A DNA stretch of 64,000 nucleotides from Candidatus Rokuibacteriota bacterium (GCA_040902305.1 JBBDXN010000134.1:11920-75919), one strand, 5' to 3'. Shown: positions 4,313 to 48,588, counted from the first letter of the stretch. The notes: generated by a model not told the origin, from the letters alone. Translations and numbers: made by a program.

Positions 4313-5107
4313 ATGAAAGGCTCTTTAGACATGGCGTACCAGGCCTTCGATCTCACCGGCAAGACCGCGATCGTCACCGGGGGCAATAGCGGCATCGGTC
4401 TCGGCATGGCGGAGGCGATGGCGCGCGCCGGCGCCGCGGTCTGCGTCTGGGGCACCAACGAGGACAAGAACACGCACGCGCTCGCGCGTCTGCACGCGAT
4501 CGGGGCGAAGGCCCTGGCGCTCCGCTGCGACGTGAGCGACGAGGCGGCGGTGGAGCGCGCGTTCGCGGAGACCGTGTCGACCCTCGGCGGGGTGGACGCC
4601 TGCTTCGTCAACGCGGGGGTCTCGGGCCGCGGCGGCGCCGCGAGCTTCGCGGAGATGACCACCGAGGAATGGCACCGGGTGCTGAAGGTGAATCTCGATG
4701 GCGCCTTCTTCACCCAGCGGGCGGCCGCCCGCCACATGACCGCGCGCGGCGCGGGCGGCTCGCTCGCGGTCACCGCGAGCCAGGCCGCGCTCGAGGGCTC
4801 GCCGCTCAGCGCCCACTACGCGGCCAGCAAGGGCGCCATGCTCTCGGTCATGCGCGCGCTCTCGGTGGGCCTCGCGCGGCACAAGATCCGGGTCAACGCC
4901 ATCGTGCCGGGCTGGATCGACACGCCGATGACCGAGAAGGCGGTGCACGGCGAGGCCTTCAAGACGCGCGTGCTGCCGCGCGTGCCCGTCCGGCGCTGGG
5001 GCACCGGCGACGACTTCGGCGGCATCGCGGTCTACCTGGCCAGCGACGCCAGCAGCTACCACACCGGCGACACCTTCATCATCGACGGCGGCTACGCCAT
5101 CTTTTAG
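4313..5107 (+). CDS. SDR-family oxidoreductase
   Basis: 264 aa. TGGNSGIG Rossmann motif and YAASK catalytic Y-x-x-x-K. Confidence 0.9.
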   Translation: MKGSLDMAYQAFDLTGKTAIVTGGNSGIGLGMAEAMARAGAAVCVWGTNEDKNTHALARLHAIGAKALALRCDVSDEAAVERAFAETVSTLGGVDACFVNAGVSGRGGAASFAEMTTEEWHRVLKVNLDGAFFTQRAAARHMTARGAGGSLAVTASQAALEGSPLSAHYAASKGAMLSVMRALSVGLARHKIRVNAIVPGWIDTPMTEKAVHGEAFKTRVLPRVPVRRWGTGDDFGGIAVYLASDASSYHTGDTFIIDGGYAIF

Positions 5108-5116
5108 GTCTGAGCC

Positions 5117-5207
5117 CGCCCACCCTTACCCCAGCCCTCTCCCTGGAAGGGAGAGGGGGCCGAAATCTCCCTCTCCCCTCTGGGGAGAGGGCAGGGTGAG
5201 GGGGTGG
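5117..5207. repeat. REP/BIME-like nested-palindrome repeat, copy b (full: outer arms plus two inner hairpins)
   Basis: The left arm CCCACCCTTACCCCAG pairs with the right arm CAGGGTGAGGGGGTGG. Inner hairpins are CCCTCTCCC-TGGAA-GGGAGAGGG and CCCTCTCCCC-TCT-GGGGAGAGGG. Sits between convergent gene ends. Confidence 0.8.
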
Positions 5208-5209
5208 TC

Positions 5210-5749
5210 TCAGGGAACAACCTCCCGCCACTCCCCAGGTCGCAGCTCCCCGAGGGAGTACGGCCCCACCGCCGCCCGGATCAACCGTAGCGTGGGGTGC
5301 CCCACCGCCGCGGTCATTCGCCGCACCTGCCGGTTCCGCCCCTCGCGCAGCCCGATCTCGATCCACGCGGTCGGGATCGCCGCGCGGTAGCGGATCGGCG
5401 GCTCGCGCGGCCAGAGTCGCGGCGGCTCCGAGATGAGCGCCACCCGCGCCGGCCGCGTCCGCCCGTCCTTGAGCGCGATGCCCTGACGCAAGCGCTCGAG
5501 CGCCTCCGCGGCCGGCATGCCCTCCACCTGCGCCCAGTAGACTTTCTCGACCCCGTGGCGCGGCTCGGCCAGGCGCGACTGGAGCGCGCCGTCGTCGGTC
5601 AGCAGCACGAGCCCCTCGCTGTCGTGGTCGAGGCGCCCGGCCGGGTAGACGTCGCGTACCGGCACGTGGTCGGCCAGGGTCGGCCGTCCCGCCTGGTCGG
5701 TGAACTGGCAGAGCACGCCGAACGGCTTGTTGAGCAGGAGCAGCGTCAC
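5210..5749 (-). CDS. rluE: 23S rRNA pseudouridine synthase RluE (RsuA/RluE family)
   Basis: 179 aa. [32 protein letters not shown] (catalytic Asp) and [15 protein letters not shown] match RluE closely. Confidence 0.85.
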
Positions 5750-27597: not shown

Positions 27598-28691
27598 CTC
27601 CGGACCAACTCGGCGACCGACTTCAACGGACTGCCGTCTTTCCTTGTGATCGGCCGCCGCGCCGGCCCGGTCTGGTCCCCGAACGTGGGCTGCCAGCAGG
27701 AGTGCTTGCCCGCGCCGCCGGTCACGATCACGGTCAGGTCGTCGGCGGAGCGTACCGCGGGCACCATGGTGTCGGGCGCGTCCTTGGCGCCGCGCTGGAT
27801 CAGGTGCGCGCGGTACTCGTCACCGAGCCGCGCCAGCGGGAAGCGGGCGTGCTCGAAGAGGAACTCCTTGACCTGCCGCTTGGTGAAGCCGTCGCGCGCG
27901 ATCGTGGCGGCGTGCTCGGGGCCGAGCGAGAGCAGGGGATGGCCGCCGGCCAGGAGATTGTTGCTGCCCGCCTGGCCCATGGCGCCCGCGATCACCTTCA
28001 AGATGCCGAGGCCGGTGTAACTGAAGTGGTCCTGGATATTGTGCGGGCCCTCGCACGCGATTGCGGTGACCAGGCTCGTGGCGGCCGGGAAGCCGTGTTC
28101 AATGTGTAGTGGCTCCCACGGGTTCGCTTCCTCGTTCTCGGCCACGCAGTAGGCGATCTTGGCCGGGCTGCCCTGGGTGGCGCGGTCGCCGGTGCCGGGC
28201 AGGCCGCCGCCCACGTTCATCAGGACGAGCCGGATCGCGCGCCCGATCGTGAGGTTGGCGCGGAAGCCCTGGCCGAAGGCGTTGTAGCCCGAGTTGATGC
28301 CGACCTCTTTTGCGATCGGCCCGTTGACGATGATCAGCGGGGCCACCGGGTGCGTGGTGGCCTGGATGGAGTCGAGATTGAACGCGGGATCGGCCAGCGC
28401 CTCGACCGCGGTGAGGATGACCGGCAGGTATTCCGGCCGGCAGCCCGCCATGATCGCGTTGATCGCGATGCGCTCCACCGTGGCCTCGCCTTGGCGCGGC
28501 GGCAGCACCGCCATGACTTCGCGCGGCTCCCGATCGGTGATGCGCAGGAACTCGCGCACGTCCTCTTCGGTTGGGGGCACGATCGGCAGCCCGTCGGTCC
28601 AGCCCTGCCCCTGATAGTGCCGGTTGATCTCCGAGTAGCCGCCCTTGAGGCGGAAGATCTTGGCCGCCGGGCCCGAGGCGGACACGCTCAT
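27594..28691 (-). CDS. conserved hypothetical protein (last gene of the UGSC operon)
   Basis: 365 aa with coding-like composition. The ATG overlaps the UGSC gene stop (ATGA). I cannot assign a family to the motif WTDGLPIVPPT. Confidence 0.7.
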   Translation of the reverse strand: MSVSASGPAAKIFRLKGGYSEINRHYQGQGWTDGLPIVPPTEEDVREFLRITDREPREVMAVLPPRQGEATVERIAINAIMAGCRPEYLPVILTAVEALADPAFNLDSIQATTHPVAPLIIVNGPIAKEVGINSGYNAFGQGFRANLTIGRAIRLVLMNVGGGLPGTGDRATQGSPAKIAYCVAENEEANPWEPLHIEHGFPAATSLVTAIACEGPHNIQDHFSYTGLGILKVIAGAMGQAGSNNLLAGGHPLLSLGPEHAATIARDGFTKRQVKEFLFEHARFPLARLGDEYRAHLIQRGAKDAPDTMVPAVRSADDLTVIVTGGAGKHSCWQPTFGDQTGPARRPITRKDGSPLKSVAELVRS

Positions 28692-29218
28692 CCCCGCGTG
28701 ACCGCCTTCCGCACGATCTCGACCGCGAGCTCCGCCTTCTTCACAACCTCGTCCTCGCGGATGCCGCCCAGCGGGTGGGGGATCAAGGCCAGGGGCAGAT
28801 CGGCGAGCCCGCGGTTCTTCGACTCGAGCCTCGCCAACTGCTCGAACTCATACGTCCCCATGACCACGGTGGGGATCCCCCGCTGCTCCAGTACGATGGC
28901 GCCGTGGATACTCCACGACGTGCACGACCCTCAGTCGGCGCTGCCGACCAGGACGAAGTCGCACGTCGTGAGCGCGGCCAGGATGTCGGGCGACGGCGCG
29001 CCCGCGATGCCCTTCTCGCGCTTGACGACGTCGCGGACCCCGTACTTCTCCTTGAGGCGCGCGACCACCGCCAGCATCAGGGTGCCCGCGTTGGCCTTGC
29101 TGTTGTCGAGGATGCCCGCGCGCTTGCCCTCGAGGCTGGCCAGGCGGGGCGCCAGGCCCGAGGCGAGAATCCGAGGCTCGGCGGTGGGGTCGTACAGGAC
29201 CTGCTCGTCCTGGCTCAT
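28688..29218 (-). CDS. UGSC-family selenoprotein (in-frame UGA = Sec at 28931-28933)
   Basis: The track ORF (95 aa) stops at a TGA, but the frame continues 81 codons to TGA 28688-28690. That second stop forms an ATGA overlap with the next gene. Read-through gives ...VLVGSAD-U-GSCTSWSIHGAIVLEQRGIPTVV..., the defining U-G-S-C motif. A hairpin follows 10 nt after the UGA. Confidence 0.8.
28900..28920 (-). other. putative bacterial SECIS hairpin of the UGSC gene
   Basis: The mRNA reads CGU-CGUGGA-GUA-UCCACG-GCG. This is a 6-bp perfect stem extendable to 9 bp including a G-U pair, with G and U in the apical loop, starting 10 nt after the UGA. Confidence 0.55.
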
Positions 29219-32526: not shown

Positions 32527-32982
32527 TCAACGATCCAGGCGGGCGACCGAGACCCCGGCCGGGCCGCCTCCACCGTCCCGGTACAGCGCGTCGATGAGCG
32601 GACAGTGGGAGGCCTTGCCCGACGCGCAGCGCGCGACCGTGTCTCGGAGGACGCGCTCCATCTCTCTCAAGCTGGCGATCTTGGCCCGCACGTCCTCGAG
32701 ATGCGTCGCGGCAAGGCCGCGAGCCTCGGCGCAGGGGCGCTTGCGGTGGTCGGCCAGGGCCAGCAGGGCTCGTACCTCGTGGATGGAGAAACCCAGCGCC
32801 CGGGCTCGCCGGACGAAGGCGAGCCGTTTCAGGTGGTCTGTCCCGTAGAGACGGTAACCGCCGCCACTTCGCGCGGGTGTCGGCAGGAGCCCGGCCCGCT
32901 CGTAGTACCGGATCGTCTCGACGTTGCAGCCGGTGCGCTTGGAAAGGACCCCGATGGCGAAGCGGACTGCAATAGCCGGCAT
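32527..32982 (-). CDS. merR: MerR-family regulator with Hg(II)-type Cys triad
   Basis: 151 aa from the ATG at 32982, preceded by GGAGGAG. HTH GCNVETIRYYERAGLLP. Cys84, Cys119 and Cys127 (spacings 35 and 8, against 35 and 9 in Tn501 MerR) and the C-terminal HCPLI motif. Confidence 0.85.
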   Translation of the reverse strand: MPAIAVRFAIGVLSKRTGCNVETIRYYERAGLLPTPARSGGGYRLYGTDHLKRLAFVRRARALGFSIHEVRALLALADHRKRPCAEARGLAATHLEDVRAKIASLREMERVLRDTVARCASGKASHCPLIDALYRDGGGGPAGVSVARLDR

Positions 32983-33014: not shown

Positions 33015-33045
33015 TTGAGTCTGTAGCCGCTACAGACTTTATCAT
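33015..33045 (+). promoter_or_regulatory. MerR-type operator/promoter (19-bp spacer with perfect dyad)
   Basis: TTGAGT (33015-33020), a 19-nt spacer, then TATCAT (33040-33045). The dyad GTCTGTAGC-C-GCTACAGAC spans 33019-33037. The -10 ends 6 nt before the merB-like ATG. Confidence 0.75.
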
Positions 33046-33051
33046 CCCCCC

Positions 33052-33714
33052 ATGGCGACCCTGCACATCCTGACCGCCGACGAGCTCACCGCTCTCGACC
33101 TGGAAGGCCGGTGGAGGACGCGACGGGTCGCTCGGGAGCTCAGGATGTCTCGGCGGATTCTGCGGATGTTCCTGGATCGCGGCGGCCCGATCCCGGTTCA
33201 AGACATCGTCTCGGCCTCCGAGGATTCCGCTGGGTCCGTTCATCAGACGTTGACCGCGCTGGACGACGACGATCTGATCCTCATTCGTGATGGCCAGATA
33301 GACGTCGCGTACCCGTTCTCCGCTTCCCCGACGCCGTTCGTCGTCCGTCTGGCCGAGGGCCGGGAGCGGTACGCCTGCTGCGCGATGGACGCACTCGGCA
33401 TCGCGCCGATGGTCGGCCAGCGCATCGAGATCCGATCCCGCTGTCATCACTGCGGCGAGCCCCTGCAGTTCCCGGTCGATCCGCAGGGCCCGGGGCCCAG
33501 GGCGGAAGGCATCATGCTCTGGATCGGCAAGCAACCGGAAGAGAGATGCCGAGTCGCCGATACGTATTGAACGACCATCAATTTCTTCCGGTCGGAAGAA
33601 CATCTGAGGGCATGGCGGGAGGCGAACCCGACGGTCGAAGGAGCCGGGACCACGGTGGCAGAGGGCTTCAAGCTCGGTGACCGCATCTTCGGGGGGCTTC
33701 TCACAGGAGAGTAA
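33052..33714 (+). CDS. merB: organomercurial lyase MerB homolog with in-frame UGA (Sec) at the Cys159-equivalent position
   Basis: The track ORF stops at TGA 33568-33570, but the frame stays open to TAA 33712-33714. AYPFSA and [11 protein letters not shown] (Cys96-x-x-Asp99 equivalent) lie upstream. Read-through gives [20 protein letters not shown], compared with MerB SFCCHVHFFAS. A SECIS-like hairpin lies 12 nt downstream. Confidence 0.75.
33583..33600 (+). other. putative bacterial SECIS hairpin of the merB-like gene
   Basis: UUCUUCC-GGUC-GGAAGAA is a 7-bp perfect stem with a GGUC tetraloop, the same apical loop sequence as the E. coli fdhF SECIS. It starts 12 nt after the UGA. Confidence 0.6.
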
Positions 33715-33716
33715 GG

Positions 33717-33956
33717 ATGGCGGATCGTCGAATCACGGTCTACTGGTCCTCGACCTGACAGTCCTGCCACGCGGCGAAGGAGTTCCTTTCGTCTCGGGGA
33801 GTGCCGTTCACGGCGAAGAACGTGGCGGAGGACGCGACCGCCCGTGAGGAGCTGATCGGCAAGACCGGCCGGATGGCGGTGCCGGTGATCACGGTGGACG
33901 ATGTGGTGATCGTCGGGTTCGACCGGGGTCGGCTGCAGCGGCTCCTCGGGCCATGA
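33717..33956 (+). CDS. glutaredoxin-like (NrdH/Grx fold) selenoprotein, U-x-x-C active site
   Basis: Not in the ORF track. ATG 33717 (GGAGAG 8 nt upstream), TGA at 33756-33758, stop TGA 33954-33956 overlapping the next start (ATGA). Translation: MADRRITVYWSST-U-QSCHAAKEFLSSRGVPFTAKNV...GRMAVPVITVDDVVIVGFDRGRLQRLL. This has the Grx layout with UQSC where CxxC is expected, and the cis-Pro VP motif. Confidence 0.75.
33774..33792 (+). other. putative bacterial SECIS hairpin of the Grx-like gene
   Basis: GCGAAGG-AGUU-CCUU(U)CGU: a stem with one bulged U and a GU-containing tetraloop, starting 15 nt after the UGA. Confidence 0.45.
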
Positions 33957-34243
33957 CCGTCGCCGCGGTTCGCTGCCCCGACTGTGGCGCGCCGATCACC
34001 CTGGCCGCAGGCCTCGAGTCAGGCGCCTTGCTCGACTGCCCGAACTGCGCGGGGCATGCGGTTCGGGTTCGGGAAGAGGACGGCCGCTGGTCCGCCACCC
34101 TGGCTTACCGAGTGAGCTGCCCGACCTGCGATGAAGTCATGGCCCTTGCCGAGGATGCCAAGCCGGGGGATACGGTCTCGTGCTGTGGCCGCCGCTACCG
34201 ACTCACGTTCGAGTACGGCGCGTTCGCCGCCGAGGAAGCGTAG
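33953..34243 (+). CDS. Cys-rich double zinc-ribbon protein (LysW-like ribbons)
   Basis: 96 aa. CPDCG...CPNC and CPTC...CCG pairs. ATGA overlap with the Grx-like gene. Confidence 0.6.
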   Translation: MTVAAVRCPDCGAPITLAAGLESGALLDCPNCAGHAVRVREEDGRWSATLAYRVSCPTCDEVMALAEDAKPGDTVSCCGRRYRLTFEYGAFAAEEA

Positions 34244-39127: not shown

Positions 39128-40021
39128 ATGGAGCGCCGCCGGCTGGGCCGGACCGACATGGAGGTGAGCGTGCTCGGCTTCGGCGGCTCGGAGATCGGCT
39201 ACGAGCGGGCGGGGGCGCGCACGGTGGCCCGTCTGCTCGGCACCGCGCTCGACGCGGGCCTCAACGTGATCGACACCGCCGAGTGCTACGAGGACAGCGA
39301 GACGCTGATCGGATCGGCGCTCGGGGCCCGACGGGACGAGATCTACCTGCTGACCAAGTGCGGCCATCCCCGCGGCTACGGCCGCGGCGACTGGCGCGCG
39401 GCCTCGCTGCTCTCGAGCATCGAGCGGAGCCTCAAGCGCCTCCGCACCGACCGTCTGGACCTGATCCAGCTCCACAGCTGCGAGCTGTCCGACCTCCGGA
39501 AGGGCGAGGCCATCACCGCGCTGGAGCGGGCGCGGGAGCGCGGCCTCACGCGCTACATCGGCTACAGCGGGGACGGGGAAGCGGCGCGCTTCGCGGTCGA
39601 GTGCGGGCGATTCGACACGCTGCAGACCTCGGTGAGTGTCGCGGACCAGGAGTGCTTCGAGCTGACGCTGCCGCCGGCCGTGGAGCGGGGAATGGGCGTG
39701 ATCGCCAAGCGGCCGATCGCGAACGCGGCGTGGCGGTACGCGCGCCGGCCCCCCGAGCCCTACTACCAGCCCTACTGGGAGCGACTGCGCGCGCTCGACT
39801 ACCCGTTCGCGCGTGACGCCGAGCGCGTCGCCTCGACCGCACTCCGCTTCACCCTGGCCGCGCCGGGTGTGCACACCGCGATCGTCGGGACCAAGCGGCC
39901 CGAGCGCTGGCCGGAGAACGCGCGCCTGCTGGAAGCGGGCCCGCTGCCCGCCGCCGACGTCGAACGGATCCGCGCGCGCTGGCGGCAGGTCGCTGAGCCC
40001 TCGTGGACCGGCGAGGTCTGA
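39128..40021 (+). CDS. aldo/keto reductase
   Basis: 297 aa. LG.T...VS.LGFGG, IDTAE.Y, D...LH and IGYS motifs. Confidence 0.9.
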   Translation: MERRRLGRTDMEVSVLGFGGSEIGYERAGARTVARLLGTALDAGLNVIDTAECYEDSETLIGSALGARRDEIYLLTKCGHPRGYGRGDWRAASLLSSIERSLKRLRTDRLDLIQLHSCELSDLRKGEAITALERARERGLTRYIGYSGDGEAARFAVECGRFDTLQTSVSVADQECFELTLPPAVERGMGVIAKRPIANAAWRYARRPPEPYYQPYWERLRALDYPFARDAERVASTALRFTLAAPGVHTAIVGTKRPERWPENARLLEAGPLPAADVERIRARWRQVAEPSWTGEV

Positions 40022-40197
40022 CGAATACCTGAAGCCGGGTGCCTCGTACCAGGAGCGAGGGATCCGGGTCGCCACGGCTGTTACACAGTCGAGGGACTCG
40101 GTAGCATCCGGCGCGTGCTCTGTGCCTCATGCTGTTGGCGTCTGGGTTTCGATACAGCTTCCCGAGCTTGTCGAGCCCCCGTCGGCCGATGTAGGCT

Positions 40198-42042
40198 TTG
40201 GGACTAAGAGCGACCATGACTGCCAGAACTCGCATTGTACGACGCTCAGAGTCTTGGAAGGTTATGGAGCAGTTCGCAACCTGGTCGCTTCGCACCTCGC
40301 CCTCAGAAGTCCTTCGGGCTGGCAAAGCCATTGTTGAGAAGCACGCGCAACGCTTCGGTGAGAAGCGCCGTGAGGCCTTTGCTATCGAGTTCACCAGACG
40401 CGTTGTTGCCCAGTACTGGAACGAGATCCAGTCGGACTATGATCATGTGTGGCCCCTGCCACACATTCTGGTTGACTCGGACGTAGTGCGGCTTACCCCT
40501 GAATTGGAATGGCTGGCTGACCGGCTTGGTCGCGCAGCGGCTCGCCTCGATCCCGTGTCGGCTGGGTACTTTGTTGGTACGACCTACGCTATCGCGCTTC
40601 CGCCCGAGATACGTGCACGCCTGGGGATCTACTACACGCCGCCTGCCCTTAGTTCTCGCTTGTTGGATCAGGTCACCGCAGCGGGGATTGATTGGGGCTC
40701 ATGTACCGTAGTCGATCCAGCGTGTGGAGGAGGCGCCTTTCTTGCCCCAGTAGCTCAGCGAATCATCAAGCATTTGTCCCATCTGGAGCCAGCAGCCCTT
40801 GTCGACGCTATGGCTGGGCGCGTTCACGGCGTTGAACTTGATCCTTTCGCAGCCTGGTTGTCCCAGGTGTTTGTCGAGTCAGTCATGTTGCCTACGTGCA
40901 GGGCCGGGGGGTCTCGACTTCCCCTGTTGGTTGATGTCCGAGATAGTCTGTCAATGCAGTCAACTTCCGAAACCTTTGATCTCGTCATCGGGAACCCTCC
41001 TTATCGGCGTGTGACGCTGTCCACGGTTCTAAGAGACCGGTATTCCAGTAGCCTCTACGGTCACGCGAATCTGTACGGAATCTTCACGGAGTTGGCTCTG
41101 GGTCTGGTAAAGGCTGGGGGCCTTGTTGCGTATGTAACCCCAACGAGTTTCCTGGCCGGTCAGTACTTCAAGAAGCTACGTGACCTTCTGGGCCACGAAG
41201 CTCCTCCGGTGGCTGTCGATTTCATTGCGCAGCGAAAAGGAGTGTTCGACGGTGTGTTGCAGGAGGCGGTCCTCGCCACCTACCGACGCAAGGGGAAGGC
41301 GGAGCCGGCGCCGGTCAGCCTTGTAACGCCGGTGGACGAAGGTACTGCCCGGGTTATAACGGTCGCAGACTTTCGCCTGCCGCACTCTGCCAACCAGCCG
41401 TGGCTGATTCCGAGAAGCGTCGAACAGGTATCTCTGGTTAAGCGGATGGAAGAGATGCCCCATCGTCTTTCGGATTGGGGCTACCGCGTGAGAACCGGGC
41501 CTCTCGTTTGGAATCGGCACCGGAGTCAATTGCGGCTAGAGGCCGGCCCAGGTTGTCTTCCGCTGATTTGGGCCGAGTCGATTACATCGGATGGGCGCTT
41601 CGTACTGAGAGCGCTCAAGCAGAACCACAAGCCGTTCTTCAAGCCATCTGGTAAAGAGGAGTGGCTCATCATCCGGCGTGGCTGTGTCCTCCTTCAAAGG
41701 ACGACTGCAAAGGAACAAGCTCGACGTCTCATCGCGGCAGTGCTTCCCATGCGTCTGTTTCGAAGGTACGGGGCTGTCGTGGTCGAGAATCACCTGAATA
41801 TGATTGTGCCAATGCGGTCGCGTGCCGCGGTCGGGTTGGAGGCCCTTGCTGCATTCCTCAACAGCTCTGTCGTCGATCGAGCATTTCGTTGTGTGAGCGG
41901 TAGCGTTGCAGTCTCGGCCTATGAGCTAGAGGCCCTTCCACTTCCGTCGCCGGAGGACATTCGGAGTGTGGAACAGGCGATCGGGCGCGGTGCGTCGCGA
42001 GACGAGATGGACAAACTCTGCGGTCAGCTATACGGCGTCTAG
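40198..42042 (+). CDS. type II N6-adenine DNA methyltransferase (gamma class, Eco57I/TaqI-like)
   Basis: Up to 614 aa. Motif I VVDPACGGGAFL precedes motif IV LVIGNPPY. TaqI_C-like target-recognition end (AFLNSSVVDR...YELEALPLP). The start is uncertain (40198, 40216 or 40264). Visibly lower G+C than the flanks. Confidence 0.8.
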   Translation: MGLRATMTARTRIVRRSESWKVMEQFATWSLRTSPSEVLRAGKAIVEKHAQRFGEKRREAFAIEFTRRVVAQYWNEIQSDYDHVWPLPHILVDSDVVRLTPELEWLADRLGRAAARLDPVSAGYFVGTTYAIALPPEIRARLGIYYTPPALSSRLLDQVTAAGIDWGSCTVVDPACGGGAFLAPVAQRIIKHLSHLEPAALVDAMAGRVHGVELDPFAAWLSQVFVESVMLPTCRAGGSRLPLLVDVRDSLSMQSTSETFDLVIGNPPYRRVTLSTVLRDRYSSSLYGHANLYGIFTELALGLVKAGGLVAYVTPTSFLAGQYFKKLRDLLGHEAPPVAVDFIAQRKGVFDGVLQEAVLATYRRKGKAEPAPVSLVTPVDEGTARVITVADFRLPHSANQPWLIPRSVEQVSLVKRMEEMPHRLSDWGYRVRTGPLVWNRHRSQLRLEAGPGCLPLIWAESITSDGRFVLRALKQNHKPFFKPSGKEEWLIIRRGCVLLQRTTAKEQARRLIAAVLPMRLFRRYGAVVVENHLNMIVPMRSRAAVGLEALAAFLNSSVVDRAFRCVSGSVAVSAYELEALPLPSPEDIRSVEQAIGRGASRDEMDKLCGQLYGV

Positions 42043-42099
42043 GAGTGGTGGCTCGTGTTTGTCGGTTGGTTCGAGGCTGTTCAAGCGCTGATCCGCTGT

Positions 42100-43203
42100 T
42101 CAGGATCGGAGCTTCGCGGCCACGGATGAAAGACTTGTGGGCCAAAGCCCTCCATCGTGAAAGGCAAGCAGATGTTGAGGCTCGGCGGCAAACCAGACGA
42201 ACGAGTTCCAGGCGACCTCTGTGATGGTTTTCTTGAAGGCTGAGTCCGATCGGTCGCGGAAGGCGGTGACGAAGGCAATCCGGTTCGCCGGGAAGCCCGC
42301 ATCAGTAGCCAATTTGAGAAGGGCCGATTGCCGTTGCGTCGTGATAGCGCCGTCTGTCACGACGACCTCGATAAAGGCAATGAGGACGTTGCCGTCGGTC
42401 CTGCCGTCTTCGAGATCGACGAGGATGATGTCGGGCAGGTTGCGATCTGGGGCGATTTGAAGTCGAAGAGCGGCGGCCAGTTGGTCATCTCTTGCGACCA
42501 CCTTCTCCTTGCTCTCGCTGACCCACAGAACAACGGGCTGCTTCATGAATCGCGGCGCGAAGACTTCCACGACGGATTTTGTCAGCTCAGAGCTCGGGCC
42601 GTGAGACATAAGGCGAGTTTCCCGGTTGGGGAAAGTGACCAGAAGGCGTTCGTCCGTCGAAGCTGCGCCACGACGTAACAGCTGGGTATGCGCCAACGCG
42701 CCGGCTGAGAGGTGTCTACTGCGCCAATCGGCAGCCGCCTTCTCGAGGGAAGCCTCGCTAAGTGTAGGACTGAAGAGAGCAGCGAATTCGGCGCGTAGTG
42801 CATAGCGGGGTTTCGCCGAGGTCGTCGATAGTCCGCGACGCTCAGTAACAGCGTTGTTGCCTATCAGCCCCTGCCGGATTGTTTCATCTCGGATTTGTTC
42901 GCGGCTGTTTTCTGAGTACCAGGGCTTCCCCGCCGGACGGAATCCGGGCTTCAGTGACCTGGTCGCATACGATTCGCGCGCAAGGGCATCACGTTTTGAG
43001 GCTTGCGCGTTAGTCATCCGGACAACCTGCTTGGGAGCTAGCCAGACGTCCGCGCCCTCTATGGCGCCTACATAGAGCAGCGTAAAGACAGCGGAAGCGG
43101 CAGCCTCTCGAACGCAATAGGCGCGGTGCGGTGTACCTTCAGGGAAGATGATCGGCAGCCGAGCATGTATGTCTGCGCGCCCGACGTATGGAGGAAGGTT
43201 CAC
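42100..43203 (-). CDS. BsuBI/PstI-family type II restriction endonuclease
   Basis: 367 aa from the GTG at 43203. LPIIFPEGTPHRAYCVREAAASAVFTLLYVGAIEG is the N-terminal domain. The C-terminal block PDIILVD...LIAFIEVVVTDGAIT..R...L..........AFVTAF.DR..F.K...E.AW...VW.A.EP.HL..F is characteristic of the family. The rest of the 776-aa track ORF is antisense to the next gene. Confidence 0.8.
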   Translation of the reverse strand: MNLPPYVGRADIHARLPIIFPEGTPHRAYCVREAAASAVFTLLYVGAIEGADVWLAPKQVVRMTNAQASKRDALARESYATRSLKPGFRPAGKPWYSENSREQIRDETIRQGLIGNNAVTERRGLSTTSAKPRYALRAEFAALFSPTLSEASLEKAAADWRSRHLSAGALAHTQLLRRGAASTDERLLVTFPNRETRLMSHGPSSELTKSVVEVFAPRFMKQPVVLWVSESKEKVVARDDQLAAALRLQIAPDRNLPDIILVDLEDGRTDGNVLIAFIEVVVTDGAITTQRQSALLKLATDAGFPANRIAFVTAFRDRSDSAFKKTITEVAWNSFVWFAAEPQHLLAFHDGGLWPTSLSSVAAKLRS

Positions 43204-45380: not shown

Positions 45381-46502
45381 ATGAAGGGACGGGTGGCGGG
45401 TCTCAAGGCCTACGGTGGCGAGTTCGAGCTGCGCGAGTACCCGGTGCCCGATTTGGAGCCCGGCGCGATCCTGATCAAGCTGACGCGGGCGGGGGTGTGC
45501 GGCTCCGATCTGCACATCTGGCGGGGCGAGATGAAGGAGACGTACGGCGCGCTGCCCAAGGACCTCACCTTCGGCCACGAGATGTGCGGCAAGGTGGAGC
45601 GGCTCGGGGCCGGGGTCACCACCGACTCGATGGGGCGGCCTTTGCGCAAGGGCGACCGGGTGACCTACTGCTACTTCTTCCCGTGCGGCCGCTGCCCGGT
45701 GTGCCTGCACGACGAGATGGGGAGCTGCCCGCAAAAGGGACGCCCGAACCGGGTGGCCGGCACCGCGCCCTACTTCAACAACGCCTACGGCGACTACTAC
45801 TACCTCCGGCCGGGCCACTTCATCTTCAAGGTGCCCGACGAGATCCCGGAGGACGTGGCCACCCCGATCAACTGCGCGCTCTCCCAGGTGCTCTACGGCC
45901 TGCGCAAGGCGGGCTTCCGGGCCGGCCAGTCGCTGGTGGTGCAGGGAGCGGGCGGGCTCGGCCTCAACGCGGTGGCGGTGGCGCGCGATATGGGCGCCGA
46001 TACCATCATCGTGATCGACCGGCTCGCCGAGCGGCTGGCCCTTGCCCGATCGTTCGGGGCCGACCACACCGTGAACGCGACCGAGATCGCCTCCGCGGAC
46101 AAGCGCGTCGACGCGGTAAAGGCGCTGACCGACGGCTTCGGGGCCAGCGTGGTGGCCGACTTCGTGGGCTACCCCGACGTGATCCCCGAGGGCCTGCGGA
46201 TGCTCCGGGGCGGCGGCTGCTATCTCGAGGTGGGCAGCATCTCGCCCGGCAACGTGTTTTCCTACGACGCCACCGCGCTGGTGCGGGCCAACGCGCGGCT
46301 TGTGGCCACGTCGAACTACTCGCCGTGGGCGCTCGAGCAGTCGCTCTCGTTCATGAAGCGCAACTTGAAGCGCTTCCCCTTCGAGAAGGTGATCTCGCAC
46401 GTGTTCCCGCTCGAGCGCATCTCGGAGGCCTTCGCCCAGGGCGACTGGGCCCAGCGCGGCGGCGACCCCGCGGGCGTCTCCCGCGCCGCGATCTCCATGT
46501 AG
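45381..46502 (+). CDS. Zn-dependent alcohol dehydrogenase (MDR family)
   Basis: 373 aa. GVCGSDLH, GHE..G and the structural Zn Cys cluster (C..C..C......C), with GAGGLG NAD-binding motif. Paralog of 51407-52519. Confidence 0.88.
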   Translation: MKGRVAGLKAYGGEFELREYPVPDLEPGAILIKLTRAGVCGSDLHIWRGEMKETYGALPKDLTFGHEMCGKVERLGAGVTTDSMGRPLRKGDRVTYCYFFPCGRCPVCLHDEMGSCPQKGRPNRVAGTAPYFNNAYGDYYYLRPGHFIFKVPDEIPEDVATPINCALSQVLYGLRKAGFRAGQSLVVQGAGGLGLNAVAVARDMGADTIIVIDRLAERLALARSFGADHTVNATEIASADKRVDAVKALTDGFGASVVADFVGYPDVIPEGLRMLRGGGCYLEVGSISPGNVFSYDATALVRANARLVATSNYSPWALEQSLSFMKRNLKRFPFEKVISHVFPLERISEAFAQGDWAQRGGDPAGVSRAAISM

Positions 46503-46921
46503 CACGCCGCCGACAATTCCTTCGGAATAGACATCGCGGTCACTGCCCTTTTGCGGGCCGAATGGATTCGGGCCGCGCGCTTGTGAGGCGCGCACGACGT
46601 GACTCGCCAGTCTTACCGCTTGACACGCGACGTAGAGCGAGTGATCTGCCAGAAGATGTCCTTACTGTGTATTGCCTCAAACACCGCGTGTCTTTGGGAT
46701 CTGTACCTGCGCTGAAGCCCAGTCTTCCAGAGAGTCAATCACCGTTTCTGTGTTCGGATCTTTCTTGACGTGGTGCGATTTCTCCGTGACTATCGGCGGC
46801 GCTTGTGTTCCTTGACGGGCTTACTAGATGAAATGAGTCCGAGTTGATCTGGCCCAATACGTTGTCGGAGGCGCTAACCGGCTTGTCTGTATCTGAAGAT
46901 GAGCCAGGCAAGACGCCGGTG

Positions 46922-47662
46922 ATGAAGAACCATAACTGCGCAGCCGGAGCGTTTCCGTCTGCACCTTCACTCTGGGCCGCCCACAGTTCGGACGCTACTT
47001 GGACCGTGTTCTGGGATAGGCCTGTACGTGTTGCGCTCGGCCGAATCTGGCCTGTCTGTGGGAAGAGGATTCTGGTCGTCGGTTGTGGCGATAGTCCTGT
47101 CTCGGCACATCTGGTGCGTGGCGGGGCACAGGTCCTAGCGCTCGATTTGTCGTTTCCTGCGCTTGCGGCAGCCGCGCGGAATGGCCCGGGACCCGCATAC
47201 CTCCAGGCGGACGCATCGAGGCTTCCAGTCCTGAATGCGACGTTTGATGTCACCCTGTCGGTCAGCACCCTGCAATACATGGCGATCAATGAAGTCGTGG
47301 GGAATTGCCGTCGAGTCTTGCGGCCCGGCGGCGTGTCCATGTTCATCGAGAATCTTGCGGGTAACCCCGCGGCGAAGCTGGATCGGTTCCGACGCCGCGT
47401 CCTCCGGGTACCAGAACCGCCGACAATGCGCATTCGGCGGCACCTGGAGCTGGCGGATCTCGCCATGTTCGGGCAGATGTTCACCAGGGTCACTGCCGAA
47501 GTCTGGTACGACTGGAGTACGGTCCTGCTGCCCCTCCTTTCCGCGCCTCCCATGGTCCGCCGACTAGTCATCGCGGCAGTTCTTCGGAGCGGGCGCGCGA
47601 CACCGCTATCGGCCTGGAGGTCCCGATTCGGATGGATCCTCTCCGTAGAGGCGCGGGTCTAA
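46922..47662 (+). CDS. class I SAM-dependent methyltransferase
   Basis: ILVVGCGDSP motif I, LDLS, and RVLRPGG post-II region. Start is ATG 46922 or the upstream TTG 46844. Low-G+C islet. Confidence 0.7.
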   Translation: MKNHNCAAGAFPSAPSLWAAHSSDATWTVFWDRPVRVALGRIWPVCGKRILVVGCGDSPVSAHLVRGGAQVLALDLSFPALAAAARNGPGPAYLQADASRLPVLNATFDVTLSVSTLQYMAINEVVGNCRRVLRPGGVSMFIENLAGNPAAKLDRFRRRVLRVPEPPTMRIRRHLELADLAMFGQMFTRVTAEVWYDWSTVLLPLLSAPPMVRRLVIAAVLRSGRATPLSAWRSRFGWILSVEARV

Positions 47663-47667
47663 CTCAG

Positions 47668-48588
47668 ATGGGGTCGATCCCCTTGCTGGCCACCCTGGAC
47701 GTGCATGACCACCCAAGGCTGGAAGCTGTCGTCGAAAAGTCGGCAGAGTTTTTTGCGCGTTCGAATGAACGGGTTACCTACTTTATCCCGTCGGCGATCG
47801 TGCTGCGCCACACCGGCATCCGACACATTCTTCGTGAGATCCGAAGGGTAGGGCACAGCGTCGGATGTCACGGTCTCACGCACGATGCGTCCGAGGATCT
47901 GGGTAGTCTGTCGCCCCGGGCGGAGTATCTTGTTCTGAGGCAGGCGACGGAGATCCTGGAGGACACGCTCGGCGCGCCGGTCCGGAGCTTTCGAGCGCCC
48001 GGCTTCCGGATCAGCCGCCGGACGCAGGAGATCCTGACGGAGCTGGGATACAAGGCGGACTTGTCAGTCACGCCACAGCGCTTGTGCGTGTTGAGTTCGA
48101 GTCCAGTTGAGGTCGGGTGGATGTGGGCGCCGCGTACACCGTACGCACCGAGAGCGGGAAATCCGTTCCGGCGCGGAGAGTTGGACTTACTGGAGATACC
48201 GACGAGCACCCTGGGTCTCCCGCTCACTCACGGGACCATAGCGAATGTTCCCGACTGGTTGACGCAGGCGCTGCTGGCTGGTCTGTCGCTTGAAGCCATG
48301 TACTTTCCCCGCGTGCTCGTCCCGATGTTCCATCCGGAAGCGATCGTTGGAGAGGTGGAACCATGGCGGCCGCAGTTCCGCTGGCGTGATCTCTTTCCCT
48401 CGCGAGTTGGCGGGGTCCGAGCCCGGTTCTATTTCTTCCTCGAACGCGACGCAAGAACAATCCACCGCCGCACGATGGCGACCATCAGGCAGTTGAGAGA
48501 TGTTGCAGGGCTGGAGAGTCTATCGGTTGACGACTATCTGCGCAGGTACGTCACTGAGGACGGTACGGTCAGTTCGGAGTTCGCGTAG
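47668..48588 (+). CDS. polysaccharide deacetylase (NodB-homology) family protein
   Basis: LATLDVHD, GCHGLTHD and FRAPGF motifs. Start is ATG 47668, or 47632 overlapping the previous gene. Confidence 0.7.
   Translation: MGSIPLLATLDVHDHPRLEAVVEKSAEFFARSNERVTYFIPSAIVLRHTGIRHILREIRRVGHSVGCHGLTHDASEDLGSLSPRAEYLVLRQATEILEDTLGAPVRSFRAPGFRISRRTQEILTELGYKADLSVTPQRLCVLSSSPVEVGWMWAPRTPYAPRAGNPFRRGELDLLEIPTSTLGLPLTHGTIANVPDWLTQALLAGLSLEAMYFPRVLVPMFHPEAIVGEVEPWRPQFRWRDLFPSRVGGVRARFYFFLERDARTIHRRTMATIRQLRDVAGLESLSVDDYLRRYVTEDGTVSSEFA

Follow-up and report, generated by a model that had tools for sequence, protein, structure and literature searches.

Does the in-frame TGA at positions 33756-33758 of a 64,000-nucleotide stretch of DNA from a Candidatus Rokuibacteriota bacterium (GCA_040902305.1 JBBDXN010000134.1:11920-75919; here called the window) end a short reading frame, or is it read as selenocysteine (Sec, U) in a small glutaredoxin (Grx)? 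A sequence-only reading of this DNA had proposed the latter, placing a Grx-like gene with a U-x-x-C active site directly after a merB-like gene. We conclude that the segment 33717-33956 (plus strand) is very probably a functional selenoprotein gene, encoding a 79-aa glutaredoxin of the type of YruB and Clostridium oremlandii Grx1 within a merB-like(U)-grx(U)-ribbon operon, the third gene of which encodes a zinc-ribbon protein; this is the explanation that we prefer for the locus overall. The protein type itself is already known, and it is the setting, a mercury-type operon in which the Grx gene lies between genes for two Cys/Sec-rich proteins, that is unusual.

The reading frame is as first described. 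It begins at ATG 33717-33719, 5 nt downstream of what reads as a Shine–Dalgarno element, GGAGAG (33706-33711, plus strand), within the 3' end of merB; it contains a single in-frame TGA at codon 14 (U14, 33756-33758), places the resolving Cys17 at 33765-33767, and ends at TGA 33954-33956, which forms an ATGA overlap with the ATG of the next gene (33953-33955). The stop codon of the merB-like gene, TAA 33712-33714, is 2 nt upstream of the Grx ATG. Read through, the frame gives MADRRITVYWSST-U-QSCHAAKEFL...VGFDRGRLQRLLGP, with the active-site motif U-Q-S-C. As had also been noted, no listed open reading frame (ORF) spans the UGA; the ORF list holds only a 51-aa fragment that starts at GTG (33801-33956).

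The product was compared with profile libraries with U written as C. A profile search for a thioredoxin fold had been set beforehand as a check, and it returned the Pfam Glutaredoxin model PF00462 over its whole length (residues 6-65 on profile positions 1-60 of 60; E=4.4e-16; 59.3 bits, cutoff 22.9). NrdH models scored far lower, at 47 and 37 bits. The closest solved structure, 7C10, aligns over the full length with 40 of 75 residues identical (53%; E=1.1e-20), an identity high enough to assign the fold. The alignment sets CPHC opposite U-Q-S-C and matches MAVPVI, which carries the cis-Pro, and VGFDR, both present in the two proteins; the Grx/NrdH-type layout with U at the first Cys of CxxC, as originally proposed, is thus visible against a solved structure.

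That structure is of glutaredoxin-1 from C. oremlandii, a native selenoprotein with a U-P-H-C site that was crystallised in its Cys form and that is proposed to reduce the selenoprotein MsrA (PMC7642778). The earlier statement that Sec-containing glutaredoxin-like proteins are known in bacteria is therefore correct, and Sec-Grx (PF00462, UxxC) is counted in a literature listing among the prokaryotic selenoproteins with experimental support; what had been missed is that the closest characterised relative is itself a selenoprotein. The likeness to this protein (Clostridium, or Alkaliphilus, oremlandii Grx1; PDB 7C10/7C12; Kim et al. 2011; PMC7642778) extends to fold, size (84 versus 79 aa), the placing of Sec first in CxxC, and a setting in which it acts in tandem with another selenoprotein. 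The two differ in the residues within the motif (P-H there, Q-S here), in host (an anaerobic Firmicute versus a high-GC soil/groundwater bacterium of Rokubacteria type) and in partner, which is MsrA in C. oremlandii and would be a MerB-like lyase and a zinc-ribbon protein in the window.

Comparison with related genomes bears directly on the codon. A DNA scan, limited to one genome per species, yielded 80 related loci (numbered with the prefix L), mostly from Rokubacteria/Methylomirabilota, with others from NC10, Deltaproteobacteria, Binatia, Tectomicrobia, Nitrospinota, Dehalococcoidia and further groups. Where CxxC has its first Cys, 72 of these genes and the window have TGA, seven have TGC or TGT, and TAA and TAG do not occur, although TGA accounts for only 14 of the 23 ordinary stops in the window. 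Conservation of the peptide extends to either side of this codon (ITVYWSST before the TGA, QSCHAAKEFLSS... after it), so that the conservation downstream of the UGA that had been looked for in related genomes is found, along with conservation upstream. Cys-containing orthologs, the other comparison that had been proposed, place their Cys at the UGA in all seven TGC/TGT genes and in L082. This last gene (1653-1886), a close ortholog, has TGC at the Sec codon with the downstream hairpin kept, and its upstream merB still has TGA; it looks like a recent switch from Sec to Cys.

The hairpin that follows the UGA provides a second line of evidence. A structure resembling a selenocysteine insertion sequence (SECIS) lies at 33773-33793 (plus strand), with an 8-bp stem (33773-33780/33786-33793), the loop AGUUC (33781-33785) and a weaker lower helix that extends out to 33764-33801. 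Counted from the U of the UGA, the core stem occupies 18-38 nt (it begins 15 nt after the UGA triplet) and the lower helix begins at 15 nt; the apical loop, with its G/U, is 22-27 nt after the UGA. The hairpin had been described as starting 15 nt after the UGA, with a GU-containing tetraloop and a bulged U; its distance and its G/U loop stand, while the loop proves to have five nucleotides and the supposed bulge to be a 1x1 internal loop (C17/U39). A stem-loop follows the UGA at a constant distance in all Sec-form genes, with the consensus GCGAAAGAGUUUCUUUCGY and the loop AGUUY. In an ungapped alignment of 73 sequences, 90.8% of the cells that should pair do so, as compared with at most 71% when the partners are slid by 1-3 columns. 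Position pair 20-36 is C-G in 46 sequences, A-U in 14 and U-A in 8, a covariation score that none of 500 shuffles reached. Column 36 falls on the third, synonymous position of a Ser codon and changes in step with the second position of a codon for Ala, Glu or Val, which selection on the protein cannot explain. Codon choice tells the same way: in 46 high-GC loci the hairpin uses AAA in 43, TTT in 38 and CTT in all 46, whereas the confident genes of the window use these codons for 2.1% of Lys, 2.3% of Phe and 0.9% of Leu residues, respectively. The hairpin therefore runs strongly against the codon bias of a 70%-GC genome. On these sequence grounds we infer that UGA 33756 is decoded as Sec at codon 14, probably by SelB-dependent insertion; the hairpin would recruit SelB with Sec-tRNA(Sec) to the ribosome, where the UGA would be read as Sec.

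What might a Sec-Grx do at this locus? Its neighbours offer some indications. The gene directly downstream (33953-34243, plus strand) encodes a 96-aa tandem LysW-like zinc-ribbon protein (Pfam Zn_ribbon_LysW), with Cys at positions 8, 11, 29, 32, 56, 59, 77 and 78. A gene of this kind directly follows 53 of the 72 Sec-grx genes and none of the seven Cys-grx genes; most of the gaps measure -4 to +10 nt, and the 4-nt overlap of the window recurs in 12 loci. The earlier reading had rightly linked the Grx to the MerB-like protein and had overlooked the ribbon gene, which is the more constant partner of the two.

The ribbon protein is itself frequently recoded. Among 56 homologs, 26 carry TGA at one to three of the four Cys ligands of the first ribbon (L012, L013, L017, L033, L037, L038, L040-L042, L044, L045, L047, L049, L050, L055, L056, L058, L059, L061, L066, L069, L076, L078 and L079), with Cys11 replaced in 9 loci, Cys29 in 2 and Cys32 in 25, so that a single site of four ligands would hold as many as three Sec residues (L058, L078); the ribbon protein of the window is all-Cys. 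In the forms with U11 the second ribbon shows C59 changed to G and C78 to H, the exception being L040, with H77 instead. An AlphaFold model of the ribbon protein (pLDDT 87.6) is all-beta, and one half superposes on LysW (3VPB_E) with a root mean square deviation of 1.1 A over 45 columns, the Foldseek E-value being only 0.018; the whole protein found no match among solved structures and no fitting curated family model. The family comprises at least 537 database clusters that bear no meaningful name. As its ligand site swaps Cys for Sec, a purely structural zinc site is unlikely, and it is plausible that the ribbon protein is an acceptor or client of the Grx. Two loci, L033 (2161, 4940) and L055 (82, 1793), each hold two pairs of Sec-grx and Sec-ribbon genes less than 3 kb apart.

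Upstream of the Grx gene is the MerB-like lyase gene (33052-33714, plus strand; 220 aa), which has its own in-frame UGA at 33568-33570. The Pfam MerB model matches residues 89-214 across this UGA (E=1.8e-31), and the UGA aligns with a Cys of the solved MerB2 structure 5C17. The codon is TGA in 23 of 25 homologs and Cys in the other two. The UGA is followed by the hairpin UUCUUCC-GGUC-GGAAGAA (33583-33600), with a 7-bp stem and a GGUC loop. The protein scores below the NCBIfam cutoffs both for MerB (81.8<193) and for SaoL (69.2<140), and it therefore forms a separate MerB branch. A merB-like gene lies upstream in 26 of the 72 Sec-grx loci, mostly with a gap to grx of -8 to +18 nt. The link between the Grx and a UGA-bearing MerB homolog, as first claimed, is thus borne out across loci, and the translational coupling that had been claimed with it is suggested by this spacing. 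The corresponding position, Cys159 of MerB, is the Sec site of SaoL (Haft & Gwadz, bioRxiv 10.1101/2022.07.06.499078), and a survey of mer genes required Cys159, so that Sec forms of MerB would go uncounted in it (PMC8261052).

A MerR-family regulator of 151 aa is encoded divergently (32527-32982, minus strand; Pfam MerR, MerR_1 and MerR-DNA-bind), and a gene was called at the same coordinates in L001. Its score against the MerR model TIGR02051 (NCBIfam), 135.1, is below the cutoff of 150.85. A divergent MerR occurs in 24 of the 72 Sec-grx loci. A first clustering of neighbours merged MerR with antisense ORFs (cluster 0), and only clusters re-annotated by Pfam or NCBIfam were kept. In MerR-family promoters a dyad operator typically sits in a long spacer, and from this architecture we read 33015-33045 (plus strand) as a putative promoter/operator, with TTGAGT (33015-33020) and TATCAT (33040-33045) separated by 19 nt and a perfect 10+10 palindrome (33018-33038, 21 bp) whose arms are 100% complementary. 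Fourteen related loci share the conserved element cTTGAGTCTGkAGTTACTACAGACTyTAyC. A consensus scan for promoters and terminators returned nothing, since it allows spacers of 16-18 nt only. Between the end of the -10 element and the merB ATG (33052) there are 6 nt and no Shine–Dalgarno sequence, and the merB mRNA may thus be leaderless. Where merB is absent, the grx-ribbon pair is found beside other metal genes, namely those for MerF (E=1.7e-16), a MerT-like protein, a GR/MerA-like flavoprotein, ArsR and CsoR-type repressors, an ArsC-type phosphatase and P-type ATPases. The flavoprotein near some pairs could be assigned neither to MerA nor to glutathione reductase, as it falls under both cutoffs.

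These neighbours suggest a function in which the selenol/thiol pair of the Grx would serve the adjacent Cys/Sec proteins, either as a metal relay or in bond reduction; we hold this view tentatively, at a little short of an even chance. The operon merB-like(U)-grx(U)-double zinc ribbon would be transcribed from the MerR-type promoter, probably on induction through MerR by Hg(II) or another thiophilic metal. In one version, Grx would strip Hg(II) from the Cys/Sec site of the MerB-like protein and hand it to the ribbon protein, at its Cys4 (or Cys/Sec) sites; in the other, it would reduce selenenyl-sulfide or disulfide bonds in the MerB-like and ribbon proteins, much as Grx1 is proposed to do for MsrA. 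MerB-type lyases hold Hg(II) on two active-site ligands until a dithiol takes it. With Sec in the MerB-like site and a dithiol needed to remove Hg(II), a U-x-x-C acceptor is a plausible unloading partner, and we favour a selenol/thiol relay over bond reduction, though the data do not separate them. Less likely still is the fuller proposal that the MerR-controlled trio is a Sec-dependent relay for organomercurials or soft metals that dispenses with MerA and occurs widely among Rokubacteria/Methylomirabilota of soil and groundwater and in neighbouring phyla, with the ribbon protein as an unrecognised selenoprotein family and a dedicated Grx client or acceptor; we regard this as possible and somewhat doubtful.

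Alternatively, the Sec-Grx might be a general housekeeping disulfide reductase, acting on Msr, peroxiredoxins or ribonucleotide reductase, with its adjacency to merB and ribbon genes carrying no metal-related meaning. The characterised relative, Grx1, does reduce MsrA, about a quarter of the Sec-grx loci have no ribbon gene and most have no merB, and a Redoxin/AhpC gene lies 3.8 kb from the window Grx. Two further observations weigh against a role in metal handling: neither the window operon nor the 20 large window ORFs scanned contain MerA, MerT or MerP, and the genes downstream, for a luciferase-like monooxygenase, an SDR and a glyoxalase, are not metal genes. A housekeeping role does not account, however, for the close and repeated placing of the ribbon gene after Sec-grx genes across phyla, for the recurrence of MerR, MerB-like, MerF, MerT-like, ArsR and CsoR-type proteins and P-type ATPases as neighbours, for the conserved MerR-type operator upstream, or for partner proteins that swap Cys for Sec at ligand positions. 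We consider a housekeeping role unlikely, and prefer a Grx that serves its neighbours.

Two described systems help to place the Sec-Grx operon. The nearest analogue is the SAO locus, which encodes the MerB-family protein SaoL, with Sec at the Hg-binding Cys159 position, and the thioredoxin-like SaoT, and for which a direct interaction with a heavy metal has been proposed (bioRxiv 10.1101/2022.07.06.499078). Both loci pair the gene of a Sec-containing MerB-family protein with that of a small UxxC selenoprotein of thioredoxin fold, alongside genes of other Cys/Sec-rich proteins; they differ in families, gene content and hosts. The window MerB-like protein has L/Y-U-T in place of C-U, and its sub-cutoff match to SaoL covers the N-terminal part only; the window Grx gave no hit to the SaoT model NF040730 at E<=0.01 in the NCBIfam scan. 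The window operon has three genes under MerR and lacks the ABC transporter, SaoC/D/E and the double-cubane genes, and the hosts in the SAO survey are anaerobic fermenters, unlike those of the window-type operon.

In the canonical mer operon (MerR-MerT/P-MerA-MerB), the N-terminal domain of MerA, or thiols, take Hg(II) from MerB. The window resembles it in the divergent MerR, the dyad operator in a 19-nt spacer, the MerB-family lyase and the need for a dithiol-type partner to unload Hg(II). It differs in lacking MerA, MerT and MerP and in having Sec for Cys159, and a Sec-Grx and a Cys8 zinc-ribbon protein stand in place of the usual partners. Neither searches on selenocysteine in Rokubacteria nor searches on grx in mer operons found the module MerR-merB(U)-grx(U)-ribbon(C/U) described in the open-access papers and preprints covered. 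Selenocysteine has been unknown in characterised mercury resistance protein families (Haft & Gwadz, bioRxiv 10.1101/2022.07.06.499078).

All of this presupposes an organism that uses Sec, and here the evidence is indirect. The window carries, besides the merB-like gene, a third recoded gene, of the UGSC family (28688-29218, minus strand), with TGA at 28931-28933 in the context ...CDFVLVGSAD-U-GSCTSWSIHG.... The match to NF041046 is full-length (120.5 bits with U as C, cutoff 125), and the ORF list splits the gene into two ORFs. Its UGA is followed by a hairpin with a GUA loop; all three UGAs of the window thus precede a hairpin whose G/U-containing loop is 20-27 nt downstream. Two further UGA-recoded genes of catalogued selenoprotein families in one window give good, if indirect, support for the use of Sec. 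A 2026 review cites a metagenome-assembled genome (MAG) of Methylomirabilota with 63 predicted selenoprotein genes (PMC13188914).

Several observations weigh against the decoding of the UGA as Sec in a known type of Grx. Neither the 64-kb window nor the flanks of 80 relatives yielded selA, selB, selD or tRNA-Sec; an ARAGORN scan of the window and of 60 loci gave no tRNA-Sec, and Pfam assigned the 20 large window ORFs to ordinary metabolism only, with no SelA, SelB or SelD. Genes for the Sec machinery are normally unlinked to those of client selenoproteins, however, so that their absence from the window and flanks is uninformative. In tblastn searches with Escherichia coli SelA, SelB and SelD as queries, L029 gave a fragment of the SelD C-terminus and L074 one that is HypE-like, and nothing else matched. 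The former (4732-5280, minus strand), in a Methylomirabilota MAG, matches the C-terminus of SelD with its last ~100 residues and lies 4.4 kb from the Sec-grx gene; the locus contains no N-terminal part of SelD, and the fragment could be a remnant, an assembly artefact or a stand-alone domain. A bait search from L029 returned mostly gene fragments from contigs of ~1 kb, together with one unassigned 197-kb contig with selA, selB and selD; as none of these matches can be tied to the window genome, we do not count them as evidence.

The remaining objections concern family and hairpin. The best curated family, YruB (TIGR02196), aligns over profile positions 1-73 of 74 and is a near miss, at 82.0 bits for a cutoff of 88.55; it resembles the window Grx in comprising small CxxC redoxins, whose members have no assigned reductant, and differs in being described with Cys where the window has Sec. 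The Uxx-star models NF041212, NF041114, NF041211 and NF047338 also fall under their cutoffs (52.5<66, 32.7<72, 26.9<100 and 29<97, respectively). The folding energy of the window hairpin is not better than that of shuffled sequences (z = -0.78 and -1.27), and none of the three window UGA hairpins reaches significance when folded as a single sequence; we therefore relied on the comparative evidence. Rfam models returned no SECIS or other relevant family, either at gathering thresholds over the whole window or in a permissive scan of 33450-34050. Conservation of the hairpin is partly confounded with that of the peptide A-K-E-F-L-S, and four Cys-form genes (L043, L071, L077 and L082) retain a similar hairpin, which we read as the mark of recent Sec-to-Cys switches.

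Could the UGA instead be read as a standard amino acid, as Trp or Gly under an alternative code, or as Cys or Trp by near-cognate suppression? Some annotation pipelines do put W or G here, and no Sec machinery was found in the window. The protein database search returned 450 relatives, mostly of 50-65 aa and beginning right after the UGA position because gene callers stop at the in-frame TGA; a few full-length entries (P0001, P0002, P0004, P0005 and P0037) show W or G at the Sec residue, apparently from gene calling under codes 4 or 25. Yet TGA is the commonest stop in the window, ending 14 of the 23 confident genes as well as grx itself, so the genetic code is not reassigned. In homologs the site aligns with Cys only, never with Trp or Gly, the SECIS-like hairpin is at the canonical distance, and the nearest characterised relative is a true selenoprotein. 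We regard a standard amino acid at this codon as very improbable. One database entry, P0003, has L at the Sec position, from a TTA codon on a 731-bp contig (L083, 383-622), and was treated as a one-off variant or error. Weakest of all is the possibility of a pseudogene or premature stop, in which translation would end at codon 14 or yield at most a C-terminal fragment of 51-62 aa from an internal start; the lack of local sel genes, the fragmentary annotation and the insignificant single-sequence folding would fit it, but it is scarcely tenable given that protein-level conservation of the 13 codons before the TGA extends over more than 70 loci of several phyla, that the in-frame stop is without exception a TGA in the Cys position, that strand beta1 and the active site would be missing from such a fragment, and that the hairpin shows RNA covariation and codons that oppose the genomic bias.

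Decoding as Sec has practical consequences for annotation. Hundreds of database entries of this Grx family are cut at the UGA or mistranslated with W or G, and the neighbouring MerB-like and zinc-ribbon genes fare likewise; surveys that demand Cys159 of MerB, or that count selenoproteins, will miss these genes. A recent review states that selenoproteins are rarely retained in aerobic bacteria, and the present loci add a widely distributed Sec-glutaredoxin clade from high-GC soil and groundwater bacteria. The core claim of a Sec-Grx is solid and will not surprise a specialist; it is the Sec-rich three-gene module and the Sec-bearing ribbon that merit follow-up. Should the relay prove true, the module would offer a tractable three-protein system for the handling of mercury-like metals by selenols, and a second example of selenoproteins working in tandem.

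Two further features were noted. Eleven of the related loci, all from Chloroflexi/Dehalococcoidia (L043, L051, L052, L054, L057, L060, L062, L064, L067, L070 and L081), encode a C-terminal extension beyond the Grx domain; Sec and Cys forms both occur among them, none has a zinc-ribbon neighbour, and a C-terminal PDZ domain was confirmed by Pfam for L043 only. Elsewhere in the window, 40000-43000 and 46500-48500 have a G+C content of 0.58-0.60 and 0.56-0.63, respectively, as compared with ~0.70, and hold no ORFs with high G+C at third codon positions; these two stretches may be foreign or non-coding DNA.

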